Shown: positions 21,859 through 29,537 of the stretch, piece by piece
Layout: each line of letters opens with the position of its first letter
Numbering within the stretch: the first letter of the stretch is position 1
Assembly: GCA_029856145.1 (NCBI GenBank)
Contig: JAHQWK010000020.1
Location: 84,120 to 148,119, forward strand
Direction of reading: 5' to 3'
DNA: 64,000 bases
Origin: Promethearchaeia archaeon
GTDB taxonomy: Archaea; Asgardarchaeota; Lokiarchaeia; Sigyniarchaeales; SOKP01
Made by a program: the position numbers and the translations under genes
Notes under the pieces: model-generated
What the model was told of the DNA's origin: nothing
Databases searched by the model: none
The model's input: only the letters and a program-made list of their open reading frames with translations

Positions 21859-22587
21859 TTAAATAAAAATTTCCCAGGGTCGCTCATCGATATGCTGGGA
21901 GATCAAATATTCTTTTATATCTTCCTTCAAAATATATGGATCATATTCCCATGCTCCCTGTTTATTAAAAGAAACACATCTAACTTTTTTAAGATTTAAT
22001 TTAGACTTTACTAAAAACCCATACATAGCAACTTGAGGGAGAGAAAGCAAAAAATTTCCTTCTGGTTTATAATCAATCACTTTAACAACATCATTTTCAA
22101 TTTGAATTAAATCAATATGACCTGTTATCGCCACATTTTCTTTTTTACCCCAAATCGGAACCTCTATTGCAACAGCATCTTTATCCTTAATTAAAATGTT
22201 TTTCAAAATTGGTTCATGCCCAGGAACACCCGAGATATTGTTTTCTTGATAATTTTCAAAAACATTTTGAGCATACTTTGGTAATTTTGATTCAGAATCA
22301 GAATACCGAATTTTACCAGATCTAATTAGGTTTTTACTATAACTTCTAATAAAAGCAGATTTAAGACCTTTAATTTTAAATTGAGATACCCTCGGAAATT
22401 CTCTTGAATTAAATAGTCTATTAGGGATTACCCCTTCGTAGACTCTTTTAAAATGGACCTTAAGCCTATTTAATTCTTCTCGATTAGTAATAATTTGAGA
22501 GTATTTTTCTTTATGATGCTCCTTATTCCAATTAAAAGAATAAGGAATATTTTGATGGATATATGTCTTTATCTTAAGTTTAAACAA
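21859..22587 (-). CDS. PD-(D/E)XK nuclease family protein
   Basis: 'IEVPIW...ITGHIDL...VIDYKP...QVAMYG'. Confidence 0.85.
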   Translation of the reverse strand: MFKLKIKTYIHQNIPYSFNWNKEHHKEKYSQIITNREELNRLKVHFKRVYEGVIPNRLFNSREFPRVSQFKIKGLKSAFIRSYSKNLIRSGKIRYSDSESKLPKYAQNVFENYQENNISGVPGHEPILKNILIKDKDAVAIEVPIWGKKENVAITGHIDLIQIENDVVKVIDYKPEGNFLLSLPQVAMYGFLVKSKLNLKKVRCVSFNKQGAWEYDPYILKEDIKEYLISQHIDERPWEIFI

Positions 22588-22914: not shown

Positions 22915-25900
22915 ATGAATACTCTGAATTTAGATATTTTAATTAACATGCTAAATGACACCTTAGCAAAGGATGTTAACCAAATATTCAGTAATCTCTT
23001 AAATGAAATTCAGAATTATTTAGATTTAGTTCCAATCAGTCCAAATATAATAATCATTATTACAGATGAGCTAAAGGAATATTCAAAAAAATTTTTTAGT
23101 CTTGGAGTAAGGAGAACACTGATAAATAATCAAACTCAGATAGAAATTTCAGAAAAATATTTAAAATTTTTACATTTTATCCTACTAAGAGAAGCTTACT
23201 TAAATTTTGTCCCATATGAATTAAGAGAGAAACAGATTATCCAAATTGTTATTCATGAAATAATAGAAAGTGATCTTTTTAAACTAGGGGTGATTAGTGA
23301 ATGGAAAGAGCTAGTTCGAAGTAATATAATCAATTATGACTTTTTATCATCTCAATTTGATAAACTCGATAAGTTTTTTAAGCTTGAAGCAACAGAAACG
23401 ACTCAAAGTCCTACACAATTCTTTTTTGAATTTATTCGCAGGAATGTTTCTGTAATTCATGATAAGATGGATGATTTTTATGATATTCTTTATGAAGAAT
23501 TTATCTATAAAACTTCAAAATCTCTCTATAATGATGCGATTGTAGAAACAATAAGAGTTCTTGTAAAAATTTTTTACCAAGTAAAATTTTTTAAAAATTA
23601 CAGTGAGTTTGAAGACCATTTTATTGAACTTAAGGAGAAGGGGATTATCTCTACTAATTTAAGTAAGAGAAAGTTTAGCGAAAATTTACGTTTGATTAAT
23701 AAATATACTATAATATCTCCTTCATATAAGCTAAACTATCATAAAGTAAACATAGTTGTAGCTATTACTGTTCTAAAGTTTAATCCTATTTTAGATCGAA
23801 AAGATATTTATTATTTCTTAGACAGAATCCCTTTTTTACATAATCCTATTTTTACGAAAAACGGATTTTCTGAGGAAATCTATTGTTATTTTGTTATACC
23901 TAAAATTTATTTAAAAGATTTATTGAAATTTATTGAAAAACTAAAAAATTTTGGTTATATTATTAATAAAGAATGCTATATCTGGAAAGCGTATAATAAC
24001 AACCTAAACTTGAACTATTTTAGGGAATACTTTAAAGCATTAAATAAAATCATAAATCCAAATCATGTGGAGTATGATGATAGATTTGAGCTTAAATTCT
24101 TAGATCTATATGATGAGCCTCATAAATTAATTGATCTTAATTTATTAGAATGGGTTATATTTGAAAGAGTTGCACAGTCTAGTCCCACAGGTATGGGTTT
24201 CGGACGTAGAGCAGACATACTTCAGTCACTTAAGGACGAAATGTTAAATTATATTGAAAGTGAAAGAGTTCTAATAATAAATTTAAGGGATTCTCTTAGT
24301 GTATTTTATAAAAAACCACAATTAAAAAAGGAGCTACTTGATTTTTTAGATAGCAATCAGAAGTTTGGTTTTTTTTATATAAATGATATGCTTCAGCAAA
24401 TATTTAAATACTTAGATGCAATTAAAAAGTTAATAAAAAGAAATCCTGAAATTAAGACTATAAGTAAACTCCAGGAGTTTCTAAGATTTCACCAATTTTC
24501 TCAGTTGATGGAAGAAAATATTTCTTTCAAAAATAAAGATATTCAATCAATAGTATTTAGAGATTTCATTCCATTATTTTTTAAATCATTTCAAGAATTT
24601 AGAAAATTAGAAGAAAAATATGGTTTTATCTATAATTTCTTTGAAGCTTGTAGAAAGTTAAAAATATATAGTTTCGATTTGATGAGACGAATCATTAGAG
24701 ATGAACAATTAGTTAAAAAAATTTATTATACAAAAGAAAAAAAACTTAAAGGATCTTTTGAGAAATTTAAACCATATAAAATTACTAACCAAATGCTCAA
24801 TTCCACATTTATAAAATTTCTAGATGCAAACTTAATTTCCCCTCAACTGATTAATACTATAACAACAAGTTCATTTGCCAAATATCATCCCGTTCTGCTA
24901 TTAAAAGACACAATTAATGTTAACAATCAAATAGCAAAGATTATAAAATATTTTCCAAGAGTGTTTTTAGAAAAAGTTAGGAATTTATTCACAAATGAAT
25001 CCTTTATAGTATTATTTACTTATTTCCTAAATATTAAAGAAAAAGATTTATTTTGTTCGATTCTATACCGCATTTTTAAGGAAAATATTGTTAGTTTTAA
25101 GAGATACTTTACAAGTGGTTTATCACCTTTTGTATTAATCAAAGATTTTTATGATTTTGATAGAAATAAGTTTTTTTATACAAAGGATTTATTTGAGGAA
25201 AGTCTTCTTTATATACAAAAAATATTAGGGGATCCTTTAAATCCGCTTCAGGATATTAAAACAACTAATCAAGAAAGATTTTGGTCTAAAGATCAAAATA
25301 TTATCAATTTAGTAAAAGCTGTTGATAGTCGTGTTTCACATGAACAACCTGACTTCAATTTCAATAGGTTAAATAAATTGATTGAATTCAATCGTAGTCT
25401 TAAAACAATACTTCTTAATCCAGAAAAATTTAAAAATTGTCAACGGGCAAATTTTTTTAAGAATTTTATTAAATCGATAAAATTCATCCCAAATTTTCAA
25501 GCTTTTGGCCTAAATCAATATTTCTTATACATTCGTCCTTCAAATATAGATGAAATAGATTTTAAGCATCTTCTAATTAATACTTTTCAGTCTATTAAAT
25601 ATCCAACAGTAATAGATGATACAAACTCTTTTTTAATTAAATACATATTTCCTTATCGCAATCCCAATATGAAACATCTGAACTGGTATTTAAAAACAAA
25701 ACTTATAATACAGGAGTATTGTCTCTTTTCTTTTAAAAAAATAATTCAAATTTTCAATTTTAATTATAACCTGAATGCTAATGGATGGAATTATGATTCA
25801 AATAGATTCAAAATATACATGCAGAATATACTTTTTAATCCAGATTATGAATTAGATTTTTCTAAAATACGACAGTTAAATATGATCGATCCATCAAAAC

Positions 25901-26535
25901 AAAATTCTATTGGATCTAATTCAATATTTTTCAAATTATTATTTGAAATTTACACTTGGAAAGCTGTAGATATAAAATCAATCTTAGGTACGCGGAAATA
26001 TTCAATTATTAATAATATTACAACACTAATTGCTAAAAATTTAATTTTTCCCTATATCTCATTGAAAAATTTAGAGTTCCAGGATAAAATCTACATAATT
26101 TTACCTAATGTAAAAGAAGAACTGAATCAAACCATCATAAAAATTTTTAACTTCTTTAACTATGGTTTTATTTATGAAATAGAAGGAGATTATTATATCC
26201 ATGGCTTTGCAGAACAAATTAGATTTGAAAATGGATTGATGATAAAAATATATTTTCCACAATCTGAGGTTGATGAATTTCTAAAAGTTTTTGATTTACT
26301 ATTTCATTATTTAGAAATCAATAATTATATCATTTTAACAGATTTAACATCTAGCAAAAATTTCCTAAACTGGATTTTTGGAGATTTAAGTTTTCTAGAC
26401 TCTTATAATCCTTTAATCAATTTAAAGTGGAGTAGTAAAGATAAAATTTGGTTAAATCATAAACTTTATACCGAAAAATTTGAGAAAATTTATCCCGATC
26501 TTTTTTATGGAGAGAAAAAATATCATTCACTTTGA
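22915..26535 (+). CDS. Giant uncharacterised protein, possibly tandem Lrp/AsnC-like (HTH+RAM) modules
   Basis: 1206-aa ORF; repeated linker-like motifs (SPSYKLNYHKVNI, IPNFQAFGLNQYFL, FPYISLKNLEFQ). Confidence 0.8.
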   Translation: MNTLNLDILINMLNDTLAKDVNQIFSNLLNEIQNYLDLVPISPNIIIIITDELKEYSKKFFSLGVRRTLINNQTQIEISEKYLKFLHFILLREAYLNFVPYELREKQIIQIVIHEIIESDLFKLGVISEWKELVRSNIINYDFLSSQFDKLDKFFKLEATETTQSPTQFFFEFIRRNVSVIHDKMDDFYDILYEEFIYKTSKSLYNDAIVETIRVLVKIFYQVKFFKNYSEFEDHFIELKEKGIISTNLSKRKFSENLRLINKYTIISPSYKLNYHKVNIVVAITVLKFNPILDRKDIYYFLDRIPFLHNPIFTKNGFSEEIYCYFVIPKIYLKDLLKFIEKLKNFGYIINKECYIWKAYNNNLNLNYFREYFKALNKIINPNHVEYDDRFELKFLDLYDEPHKLIDLNLLEWVIFERVAQSSPTGMGFGRRADILQSLKDEMLNYIESERVLIINLRDSLSVFYKKPQLKKELLDFLDSNQKFGFFYINDMLQQIFKYLDAIKKLIKRNPEIKTISKLQEFLRFHQFSQLMEENISFKNKDIQSIVFRDFIPLFFKSFQEFRKLEEKYGFIYNFFEACRKLKIYSFDLMRRIIRDEQLVKKIYYTKEKKLKGSFEKFKPYKITNQMLNSTFIKFLDANLISPQLINTITTSSFAKYHPVLLLKDTINVNNQIAKIIKYFPRVFLEKVRNLFTNESFIVLFTYFLNIKEKDLFCSILYRIFKENIVSFKRYFTSGLSPFVLIKDFYDFDRNKFFYTKDLFEESLLYIQKILGDPLNPLQDIKTTNQERFWSKDQNIINLVKAVDSRVSHEQPDFNFNRLNKLIEFNRSLKTILLNPEKFKNCQRANFFKNFIKSIKFIPNFQAFGLNQYFLYIRPSNIDEIDFKHLLINTFQSIKYPTVIDDTNSFLIKYIFPYRNPNMKHLNWYLKTKLIIQEYCLFSFKKIIQIFNFNYNLNANGWNYDSNRFKIYMQNILFNPDYELDFSKIRQLNMIDPSKQNSIGSNSIFFKLLFEIYTWKAVDIKSILGTRKYSIINNITTLIAKNLIFPYISLKNLEFQDKIYIILPNVKEELNQTIIKIFNFFNYGFIYEIEGDYYIHGFAEQIRFENGLMIKIYFPQSEVDEFLKVFDLLFHYLEINNYIILTDLTSSKNFLNWIFGDLSFLDSYNPLINLKWSSKDKIWLNHKLYTEKFEKIYPDLFYGEKKYHSL

Positions 26536-26619
26536 AAAAATTTCTCATAAGAAACTTTTCTCTTAAATCTTACTTTAAAATGGTTATAAAAATTTGGTCA
26601 ATTTATAATTTCAGTGTTG

Positions 26620-26626
26620 TTTAAAA
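26620..26626 (+). promoter_or_regulatory. Putative TATA box of micro-gene copy 1
   Basis: AGTGTTG-TTTAAAA, 31 nt before ATG 26651; mirrored in copy 2. Confidence 0.45.
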
Positions 26627-26648
26627 GGGTAACTAGAGATTAATTTTT

Positions 26649-26690
26649 GTATGCCAGGTGCTCATGAAGGTCACCCGATCATGTAAAGTC
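26649..26690 (+). repeat. 42-bp element copy 1 (micro-ORF MPGAHEGHPIM* at 26651-26686)
   Basis: GTATGCCAGGTGCTCATGAAGGTCACCCGATCATGTAAAGTC, identical to 27323-27364. Confidence 0.97.
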
Positions 26691-26743
26691 TACCAGTTTT
26701 GCAATGTCTTTATGGATGGACATTTACATTCTATTTCTTTTTT
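26681..26743 (+). terminator. Hairpin and T-tract after micro-gene copy 1
   Basis: ATGTAAA-GTC...GAC-A-TTTACAT followed by TCTATTTCTTTTTT. Confidence 0.5.
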
Positions 26744-26801
26744 ATCTTATAAAGTGGTAATAAAATAGTGGAGAGAAATAACTCTACAAGATTGTAAAAT
26801 C

Positions 26802-27101
26802 AAAAATGGTCTATGGATAAAATTGAATTTGCCACAATACGAACTTGATGAATTCCTTAGACTTTTTGATTTGTTATTTGAATATTTAGAAATCAAAGAT
26901 TACATAATATTAACGGATTTAACTAATGGTAAAAGTCTTTTAAAAGGAATTTATGGAAGTTTAAATTTTTTAGAATCTTTCAATCCACTGGTCAATTTAA
27001 AATGGAATGAAAAGGATAAAATCTGGATGAACCATAAATTATATACAGAAAAATTTAAAAAAATTTATCCAGACCTTTTTTATGGGGTAAAAATTCAATA
27101 G
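26802..27101 (+). pseudogene. 5'-truncated paralog of the C-terminus of 22915..26535
   Basis: About 70% aa identity over ~94 residues by manual alignment; homology starts abruptly at 'KNGLWIK'. Confidence 0.88.
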
Positions 27102-27295
27102 AAATGTAGAAAAAATAAATGAAAGTGAGATAAACTATTCTCATATAATTTTTATTAATAATTTTCTTTTTCCGGCTTAGATTTTATTTTAGGTTTTAAA
27201 TCTATGTTGTTTAAAATAGTTTAATTCTCAGAAATTAAATTTTTATTATAGTCTATCAAAATTTTCATTTCAAGATAATATATTTTTTAGTGAGG

Positions 27296-27302
27296 TTTAA
27301 AA
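27296..27302 (+). promoter_or_regulatory. Putative TATA box of micro-gene copy 2
   Basis: AGTGAGG-TTTAAAA, 29 nt before ATG 27325. Confidence 0.45.
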
Positions 27303-27322
27303 AAAAGAAATCAGATGTATTA

Positions 27323-27364
27323 GTATGCCAGGTGCTCATGAAGGTCACCCGATCATGTAAAGTC
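27323..27364 (+). repeat. 42-bp element copy 2 (micro-ORF MPGAHEGHPIM* at 27325-27360)
   Basis: Identical to 26649-26690. Confidence 0.97.
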
Positions 27365-27399
27365 CTTAGGGACTTTAATATTCTATTTTTTCTTTTTCC
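27358..27399 (+). terminator. Hairpin and T-tract after micro-gene copy 2
   Basis: TAAAGTCC-TTAG-GGACTTTA followed by ATATTCTATTTTTTCTTTTT. Confidence 0.6.
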
Positions 27400-27452: not shown

Positions 27453-28766
27453 TTAAACCTGATTAAAATTCTTTGGTTTTATAGCAAATTTAGATGAAAA
27501 AAGAAAAACAATTGATATTGATGTAAGTGAAACAACCGTAATGATCAAGATATCCATTGATACATATTGAGACAGAAATGTTCCGAGGGGTAAAAGGGTT
27601 ATACTGGCTAAATTTGAGGATAATGACATAATCCAATATCGCAGATTCTCATTTTTTCCAGTTCTGGAAATCTGCAGAAAAATATTCGTATATAATACCA
27701 CAAATAACCCGCCTAGGAGGTTAATAAAGGAATATATTAATACCAAGATCATTATGTTTGAGAATAGTAGCAGAACTAAACTAAATATATAAATTAAAGT
27801 TAAATACACTATAGTTTGTAATACACTTTTATTTTGAATAATATTCGGGTCTTTTTTTAAATCTATGATATTTAGTATCTTCTTAGCTAAATAAAACCCC
27901 ATTATATTAAAAACCGTAAAAATAATATAAAAATCTGAATATAAAGAAAAGCCTTCCTCTCCAAATCGGGAAAGAATGTAAGAACTAAAAGGATAAGCTA
28001 TTAATTTATCGCTCCATAAAAAAAAATAAGCTATAAATATAAAGGTAATAGCAAAAGGTGAAAAGATTAGTAAATTATTCTGATTTTGAAAGGCCTTCAT
28101 AGAAGGTTCTTGATTTGGCACTTTGGAGGAAGATTTCTTCATAAAAATGAATATTAATAATAAGGGGGAGGTTATTAACCATCCTACTACAAAGAAAATG
28201 TTCCAAAAATCTATAGAATCAATTTCTTTAACACAAAGTTTGAAAAGAAATGAGGAAAGTAATATACCTATTGAGGAGCAAGTATTGATTAATATAATTA
28301 TATTTCGTTCACTTTTTTTATCGGGAGACTCTAAAAGTAGTTTTGACATCCCTGTTCTAATTACTGCTTGACTTATTAGAAATAGAACTAAGAAAATAGC
28401 ATAACTAAGAAGAGATTGATTATATATAATAAACATTAAGAAGCTTAAAGATAGAACAAAACTAAAGGAGGTTATTATCTTGTTCTTATACTTTGAATAT
28501 TTATCAAAAAAAAGTCCCAATGCGGGGAATGAAAACAAAACTAAATATGATAAACTCTGTATTAGTGATAAACTGGATCTATCTACATTTAAAACATCGA
28601 AATGAAATAAAGGGATATAAACAAGGACGTAGATTTGAATCAAGCTAATGATGAAATAAACTAATGAGAATACGACATAATTGTTCTTACTATTTTTTAT
28701 TTTTTTTAGGGCTTTTTGAATATTTTCCCTACTAAATTTTTTCTCCAATTTTTCGTGAGTGAGCAT
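27453..28766 (-). CDS. MFS transporter
   Basis: About 12 TM helices in two halves; 'GLFFDKY' motif-A-like sequence. Confidence 0.8.
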   Translation of the reverse strand: MLTHEKLEKKFSRENIQKALKKIKNSKNNYVVFSLVYFIISLIQIYVLVYIPLFHFDVLNVDRSSLSLIQSLSYLVLFSFPALGLFFDKYSKYKNKIITSFSFVLSLSFLMFIIYNQSLLSYAIFLVLFLISQAVIRTGMSKLLLESPDKKSERNIIILINTCSSIGILLSSFLFKLCVKEIDSIDFWNIFFVVGWLITSPLLLIFIFMKKSSSKVPNQEPSMKAFQNQNNLLIFSPFAITFIFIAYFFLWSDKLIAYPFSSYILSRFGEEGFSLYSDFYIIFTVFNIMGFYLAKKILNIIDLKKDPNIIQNKSVLQTIVYLTLIYIFSLVLLLFSNIMILVLIYSFINLLGGLFVVLYTNIFLQISRTGKNENLRYWIMSLSSNLASITLLPLGTFLSQYVSMDILIITVVSLTSISIVFLFSSKFAIKPKNFNQV

Positions 28767-28869: not shown

Positions 28870-29010
28870 ATGAATTTATTTAAATGTCCTAATTGTAGAT
28901 TATGTATAGATTTTGACATCTTATTCAAAAAAGAGCTATGTCCTATGTGTGGTATGCCTTTAGACTATTGTATTGATAAGAACCCACCTAATATTGATAA
29001 GAAGTGTTAA
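28870..29010 (+). CDS. 46-aa Zn-ribbon microprotein
   Basis: MNLFKCPNCRLCIDFDILFKKELCPMCGMPLDYC...; below the ORF-track cutoff. Confidence 0.7.
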   Translation: MNLFKCPNCRLCIDFDILFKKELCPMCGMPLDYCIDKNPPNIDKKC

Positions 29011-29459: not shown

Positions 29460-29534
29460 GGACCTATAGCCTAGCCTGGATAGGGCGTCGGACTTCTAAT
29501 CCGAAAGTCGCAGGTTCGAATCCTGCTAGGTCCG
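29460..29534 (+). tRNA. tRNA-Arg(TCT)
   Basis: Cloverleaf; anticodon arm TCGGA-CTTCTAA-TCCGA; GTTCGAATC; CCA not encoded. Confidence 0.97.
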
Positions 29535-29537
29535 CTC

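Follow-up and report, generated by a model that had tools for sequence, protein, structure and literature searches.

The window, a 64,000-nucleotide stretch of genomic DNA from a Promethearchaeia archaeon, contains a 42-bp block that occurs twice in identical form (26649-26690 and 27323-27364) and has a G+C content of 50% compared to 26.6% across the window. A preliminary description of this DNA had reported that each copy holds an 11-codon ORF running from ATG to TAA, with a TTTAAAA box about 30 nt 5' of the ATG and a tail in which a hairpin is followed by TCTATTT and a T-tract. We found each of these elements in place (Table 1): the boxes start 31 nt (copy 1) and 29 nt (copy 2) before the ATG, and TCTATTT with its T-tract, in a terminator-like setting, starts at 26730 and 27382. 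The reported neighbours are likewise present: copy 1 sits 3' of the single-copy gene for a 1206-aa protein, here called the giant, copy 2 sits 3' of a remnant of that gene covering its last ~102 residues at 67% identity, and an MFS gene converges on copy 2. Within the 3.55-Mb genome searched, the block is confined to its two copies, the next-best site having 16 mismatches. The duplication is not a mis-assembly, because a separate ENA assembly (L048, 99.95% identity over 9.8 kb) carries both micro-gene copies, excluding the assembly artefact that had been considered as its source.

Table 1. Features of the giant-peptide-transporter locus, in window coordinates.
Feature	Position	Strand	Remarks
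1206-aa giant	22915-26535	+	Gluzincin-like N-domain without zinc ligands (about residues 1-204), four Lrp/AsnC-like wHTH + ferredoxin units, helical insert
TATA-like box, copy 1	26620-26626	+	Putative leaderless promoter; conserved in 11 aligned cassettes
Micro-gene copy 1, 11 codons + TAA	26651-26686	+	Leaderless member of the peptide family, local pattern M-P-G-x1-2-E-G-x-P
Terminator-like hairpin + TCTATTT/T-tract, copy 1	26681-26743	+	Overlaps the stop codon; sole conserved structure of the cassette
C-terminal remnant of giant, last ~102 codons	26787-27101	+	Older allele, from DNA comparison
TATA-like box, copy 2	27296-27302	+	In L040-type upstream flank
Micro-gene copy 2	27325-27360	+	36/36 identical to copy 1, in L040-type flanks
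Terminator-like hairpin + T-tract, copy 2	27358-27397	+	From folding
437-aa MFS transporter	27453-28766	-	PF07690; candidate exporter of the leaderless peptide
46-aa CxxC-CxxC zinc-ribbon protein	28870-29010	+	Divergent from the MFS gene; kept in the window's subclade

The zinc-ribbon protein is 65-89% identical across the subclade, and weaker relatives lie downstream at loci L142 and L174. On the right the cassette is bounded by a tRNA-Arg(TCT) gene (29460-29535, plus strand); in several other genomes, too, giant loci lie directly next to tRNA-Arg(TCT) or to TRM5, the gene beside it. Divergent from the giant lies a gene for a 242-aa PD-(D/E)XK nuclease-like protein (21859-22587, minus strand) that is kept in most of the window's subclade. 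Named public relatives are Promethearchaeota (Lokiarchaeia) MAGs. Across the family the giant gene occurs in many different neighbourhoods, which suggests that it moves.

Coding potential of the 42-bp block and origin of its two copies

The DNA of the block has no match at ≤3 mismatches in 100 relatives, the window's own genome (G000) being the only one matched among 101 genomes; a near-exact DNA search elsewhere returned six metagenome matches, all unrelated GC-rich sequence, and none in viral contigs. Even so, each of the giant's closest orthologues (64-78% identity) has, at the equivalent place, a TATA box, an ATG, a short frame, a TAA and the same terminator tail, and the encoded peptides have 8-11 residues in the pattern M-P-G-x1-2-E-G-x-P with variable fill-in. 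Start, stop and frame are kept in the homologues, and synonymous codons are used at the conserved Pro and Gly positions. Together with the 32 synonymous and 64 non-synonymous codon changes counted between nearest-neighbour peptide pairs, this indicates that the frame is coding and diversifying fast. Judged by these comparisons, the duplicated 11-codon frame is a real coding micro-gene and not a structured RNA, and, as first proposed, it probably forms a leaderless transcription unit of under 100 nt that encodes a peptide.

The preliminary description had weighed a structured RNA or a recombination site against a peptide, pointing to the 42 identical bases, synonymous sites included, and to a hairpin on the minus strand. 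That hairpin does fold in the window sequence (z -2.6 to -3.1), but it has zero consensus pairs across ten homologues, which change codons yet keep frame, start and stop; on the plus strand, conserved base-pairing is limited to the terminator stem, and an Rfam search of the element gave no relevant match. The identity at synonymous sites is better explained by gene conversion, as set out below. A non-coding structured RNA, a recombination site or an assembly artefact is thus very improbable and already largely refuted, given also that the ORF is kept although its DNA lacks a near-match in the 100 relatives, that the independent assembly has both copies and that versions with a signal peptide exist. 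Readings of the element by eye as a SECIS, a C/D box or a riboswitch were dropped because the homologues are conserved at the codon level and not at the structural level.

The flanks of copy 2 have a different affinity from its ORF. The remnant of the giant gene is 79.8% identical in DNA to the L040 allele versus 75.6% to the resident giant gene, and of the 45 nt before the copy 2 ATG, 39 match L040 and 18 match copy 1. In the ORF itself, by contrast, 36/36 positions match copy 1 and 20/27 match L040. The two window copies are therefore probably identical because gene conversion with the resident copy overwrote the peptide ORF of an older allele. In the simplest history, a new giant-plus-peptide cassette would have displaced an older one, and after conversion both promoters would make the resident peptide. 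In the nearest relative, L049, the second position is occupied by a decayed peptide gene of the L040 type, and L051 has a decayed copy of the window's type; extra peptide genes, identical or different (two or three per locus), occur at 14 or more other loci. The decayed second cassettes (L049:7790-7900 and L051:6840-6965) hold peptide genes that lack an ATG, and at L052:7903-8100 a C-terminal remnant of the giant is followed by a terminator tail.

The peptide family, the linked MFS transporter and the giant protein

We collected 115 full-length giant loci and found a partner ORF at 90 of them (78 assigned by score, 12 by hand), so that the micro-gene travels with the giant gene as had been suggested. 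At most loci the peptide gene lies upstream of the giant, head-to-head, and at the others just 3' of it. The 90 ORFs encode 86 distinct peptides and end in TAA in 80 cases; a T-rich terminator accompanies them, in most cases along with a TATA box or a Shine-Dalgarno site. A fixed score (≥9.5) recovered 73/115 giant loci versus 5/1361 other genes of the window's genome, and a simpler rule 63/114 versus 32/1361, both rules having been tuned on the giant loci themselves, among which related loci are not independent. The two top-scoring of the five control genes are the window micro-genes themselves. The score gap between giant loci and controls is over twenty-fold and held in loci examined later.

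About two thirds of the peptides are leaderless 8-14-mers, 24 are precursors of 36-41 aa and two are triple repeats (L142 and L174, where the core is encoded three times in tandem; the L174 precursor has 46 aa). A Shine-Dalgarno site precedes 40 of the 65 short ORFs and a TATA box at leaderless distance precedes 24; at least one of the two is present in 57. The cores are polar and weakly acidic, consist of 27% Gly and 19% Pro, and end in Pro in 54 of 90 cases; with His at 2% and Cys at 1.5% of residues and neither conserved, they lend no support to the His-based metal binding once suggested for the peptide. Compared by sequence, a short, Gly/Pro-rich, diversifying peptide family sits head-to-head with the giant or just 3' of it. 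The precursors, at 23-24 loci, begin with a basic n-region and an uncharged hydrophobic h-region; a small-x-small site follows, in most cases after residue 27-29, and then the same Gly/Pro core. Predicted cleavage at this site would set free 8-13 residues, as many as the short forms have. Because these long forms of many lineages carry the same core behind a Sec-type signal peptide, we infer that the window peptide is an export-signal-free version of what other lineages send through Sec. At L109, about 285 nt upstream of the giant, the same peptide gene as in L106 has a stop that reads TTA, which extends the frame; this is possibly a signal-less variant or a sequencing error.

On a tree of the giants, peptide types cluster by clade, with about six changes between the long and the short state. 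The higher the identity of two giants, the more similar their peptides (from about 0.2 to 0.83), a trend also expected from linkage alone, and in a windowed partial correlation of giant and peptide no region clearly stands out, with weak signals at residues about 31-120, 301-390 and 601-720. At about 25 of the 115 loci, the deepest branches included, no peptide gene could be recognised. Among those lacking one nearby are L111, L116, L118, L150 and L190-L193 (genera g4, g38 and g39) and the deep homologues L231 and L232; these giants may be orphan receptors or represent an ancestral peptide-free state.

The MFS gene, proposed at the outset as a partner, turned out to be a third family-wide component. 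It is the commonest neighbour of the giant, and its family occurs in 93 of 134 genomes of the giant's taxonomic family (f1) and in 0 of 19 other genomes of the order, so that, like the giant, it is found in f1 alone. An MFS gene lies within about 5 kb of 55 of 66 leaderless loci versus 2 of 24 signal-peptide loci, and in genomes with both kinds of locus it is beside the leaderless one in 6 of 6. Loci examined later agree (L216, L171 and L221 with a short peptide and an MFS gene; L198 and L199 with a signal peptide and no MFS gene). The leaderless form is thus tied to the MFS gene, and because this gene accompanies leaderless loci and rarely signal-peptide loci, its product looks like an exporter that replaces Sec and would carry the leaderless peptide out of the cell; it may instead import the peptide. 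The correlation rests on about six state changes on the tree, and an independent-pairs test (about two of four supported pairs agree, none oppose, p=0.5) cannot reach significance with four supported pairs. Sequence searches with the MFS protein gave no solved relative, and its Atlas matches are unnamed MFS clusters.

Of the 154 genomes of the source organism's order, 107 have the giant, all of them in f1; a search of 196 other genomes from the phylum did not recover it. Searches against Pfam, NCBIfam and PDB sequences returned nothing useful for it, including no match to a TPR family in Pfam and none at E≤1 to the HTH_AsnC-type and AsnC_trans_reg profiles; an Atlas feature-level lead to Lrp/AsnC was weak (score 0.78). 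An AlphaFold2 model was confident (pLDDT 88, pTM 0.88). Aligned by VIA-align, residues about 200-765 match NirDL, a fused Lrp-like enzyme (Z 13.5, rmsd 5.0, 293 aligned), and residues about 198-367 match NMB0573, AsnC and LrpC (Z 6.5-7.3). The strand-helix pattern of the Lrp-like unit recurs four times in the model, units 3 and 4 being judged within the whole model, and the first wHTH has a conserved basic helix. This fold does not prove a regulator, since NirDL, the closest structural match to the Lrp-like part, is an enzyme. Searching with a profile of units 3-4 gave no clear link to Hodarchaeales double-Lrp proteins and six weak matches outside f1 (E 4e-5 to 8e-3), and at the four loci outside f1 to which these led there was no convincing peptide gene.

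Over its N-terminal 200 residues the giant resembles M1 aminopeptidases and thermolysin with middling but consistent scores (Z 7.0-7.7, rmsd 4-5), and the top 30 structural matches are mostly zincins (Z 5.5-7.7, rmsd 4-5; Foldseek E at least 0.33). The HExxH position reads Arg-Glu-x-Tyr-x in about 105 of the 115 giants (Arg stands at position 92 in 105/115, and Tyr, Lys, Leu or Asn at position 96), so the domain has no zinc site. From the model, the giant is a candidate cytoplasmic peptide receptor and transcription regulator, and both its putative dead peptidase cleft and its four Lrp effector domains are plausible candidates for a peptide pocket. The N-domain is also a mosaic: window positions 22915-23530 are 83% identical to L039 (the rest about 51-82%) and 70% to L049 (the rest about 67-87%), which suggests that alleles have recombined inside the giant gene. 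A word-counting search for operators and a regulon recovered the Shine-Dalgarno site alone and no operator motif. At 21 loci (for example L057, L060 and L068) the gene downstream of the giant on the same strand resembles, by eye and at its N-terminus, an ADP-forming acyl-CoA synthetase, a candidate for a regulated target.

A candidate signalling cassette and competing explanations

Taken together, we judge the odds somewhat better than even that the peptide is an exported signal that is re-imported and bound by the cytoplasmic giant, which would then regulate transcription, with the MFS transporter exporting the leaderless form. Export would proceed through Sec and signal peptidase where a signal peptide is present and through the MFS transporter where it is absent, as in the window. 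The peptide would accumulate outside the cell and re-enter through a peptide uptake system, for which the window's genome has seven SBP_bac_5 genes that could serve, a non-specific indication. Binding to the giant would then lead its winged-helix domains to change transcription. Each giant allele would read its own peptide, so that strains carry private specificity types, and second peptide-gene copies would be the leftovers of one cassette displacing another.

The preliminary description had named signalling and RiPP-like roles side by side, with the giant as receptor; of the readings weighed, signalling stands best and the RiPP-like part is disfavoured. A precursor, a large protein and an MFS transporter are the usual layout of a RiPP cluster, in which the giant, as enzyme or scaffold, would modify the peptide (for example by cyclisation) and the MFS transporter would export the product. 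The top structural match of the Lrp-like part to the enzyme NirDL/AhbAB, the Gly/Pro-rich and mostly Pro-terminal cores, the Arg-Glu pair retained in about 105 of 115 N-domains and the tandem-core precursors are consistent with this. However, a Sec-type signal peptide would put the core beyond the reach of a cytoplasmic enzyme, the short forms offer no leader for recognition, the N-domain has lost its zinc ligands, and no known maturase family is among the recurring neighbours within about 1.5 kb. The head-to-head layout with a separate promoter and terminator is moreover typical of regulator-signal pairs, and we consider modification by the giant unlikely.

Ranking next, and less probable again, is a peptide that acts inside its producer only, as a co-repressor, a timer or a probe of export and uptake, and that the MFS transporter clears. 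Lrp effector domains normally bind cytoplasmic ligands, the window peptide has no export signal and the transporter could run either way, all of which would suit an internal role; yet in a quarter of the family the same core follows a canonical signal peptide, and fast diversification, the replacement of alleles and additional copies are more in keeping with selection between cells. Lower still, and improbable in our estimate, is an exported peptide that is itself the effector (an antimicrobial, a metal or surface binder or a membrane-anchored tail), with the giant only controlling it or protecting against it. Signal peptides and a linked exporter show a potential for export and not signalling as such, and cleavage is predicted, but cores of 8-12 polar, weakly acidic residues with no conserved His or Cys make poor candidates for such an effector, and the peptides pair one-to-one with giant alleles.

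The signalling reading has a broader form, which we advance tentatively and hold at slightly less than even: an independently evolved Asgard peptide communication system with a receptor built from four Lrp-like units and a pseudo-peptidase, repeated switching between Sec and leaderless export, a dedicated MFS transporter, and dozens of specificity types arising via cassette replacement and gene conversion.

Relation to known systems

By analogy, the cassette resembles the systems by which Gram-positive bacteria signal to one another with peptides, though it is built from unrelated parts. Its closest resemblance would be to the leaderless communication peptides of the RopB clan, such as SIP/RopB of Streptococcus pyogenes, in which a mature peptide of 8-10 residues has no signal for secretion or processing and the receptor gene adjoins (PMC10518010). 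An ultrasmall ORF beside a candidate cytoplasmic receptor gene and distinct codes per lineage are common to both. In contrast, the RopB-clan peptides are hydrophobic and the Asgard peptides Gly/Pro-rich and polar, the RopB-clan receptors are HTH-TPR proteins of Bacillota and the Asgard partner is a 1,200-aa archaeal protein with a gluzincin-like domain and four Lrp-like units, and the Asgard cassette has a dedicated, linked MFS transporter.

RRNPPA systems (Rap/Phr, NprR/NprX, PlcR/PapR, Rgg/SHP, ComR/ComS and AimR/AimP) also have a small peptide gene divergent from or downstream of the candidate receptor gene, a signal peptide before a C-terminal core or a leaderless form, and multiple specificity types. 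Their receptors are defined by five or nine TPRs, and their pro-peptides have shifted from Sec to alternative or leaderless export (PMC12700828). The giant is not an RRNPP receptor, because it has no TPRs; we found no relationship in sequence or fold, and any likeness in function would be one of analogy. On these comparisons the cassette belongs to neither the RopB clan nor RRNPPA.

Like Lrp/AsnC regulators, NirDL and AhbA/B, the giant contains wHTH + ferredoxin-like units, fused as in NirDL, but unlike them it has four units in one chain, a gluzincin-like N-domain, a helical insert and no Pfam or NCBIfam match; unlike M1/M4-like gluzincin metallopeptidases, its N-domain lacks HExxH. To our knowledge, known Lrp-like members bind amino acids or siroheme and not gene-encoded peptides. 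If the signalling reading is true, the giant would be the first example of an Lrp-type protein that reads a gene-encoded peptide, and an orphan MFS family would gain a candidate substrate.

Density-dependent signalling in an archaeon, which the Asgard cassette would share if it signals, is described for Haloferax volcanii, where the two-component DFS / QarABC quorum-sensing system responds to a secreted factor; the passages of that source cited here call archaeal quorum sensing poorly characterised and name peptide signals for Gram-positive bacteria only (PMC13464002). A literature search whose scope took in few subscription papers found no description of this cassette and no paper on archaeal peptide signals with cytoplasmic receptors. 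The present analysis contributes the joining of leaderless and signal-peptide forms, the split of the MFS gene between them and the conversion history of the window copies.

Lokiarchaeia are close relatives of eukaryotes. If the signalling reading is true, those living in sediment would count their kin by means of private peptide codes, with components that have no relation to the bacterial RRNPP family, and the convergence would extend to the switch from Sec to leaderless export. The survey offers about 90 matched candidate peptide-receptor pairs, which are open to synthesis and in vitro testing with no need for a culture of the host. Peptide genes of this kind are invisible to standard annotation, and none of the short ORFs is annotated on the public contigs examined. 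Elsewhere, at G000:C26 near 76400 (plus strand), a 39-codon ORF with a basic start, a hydrophobic stretch and a Gly-rich tail resembles the signal-peptide precursors in sequence and, with no giant adjoining it, is possibly an orphan.
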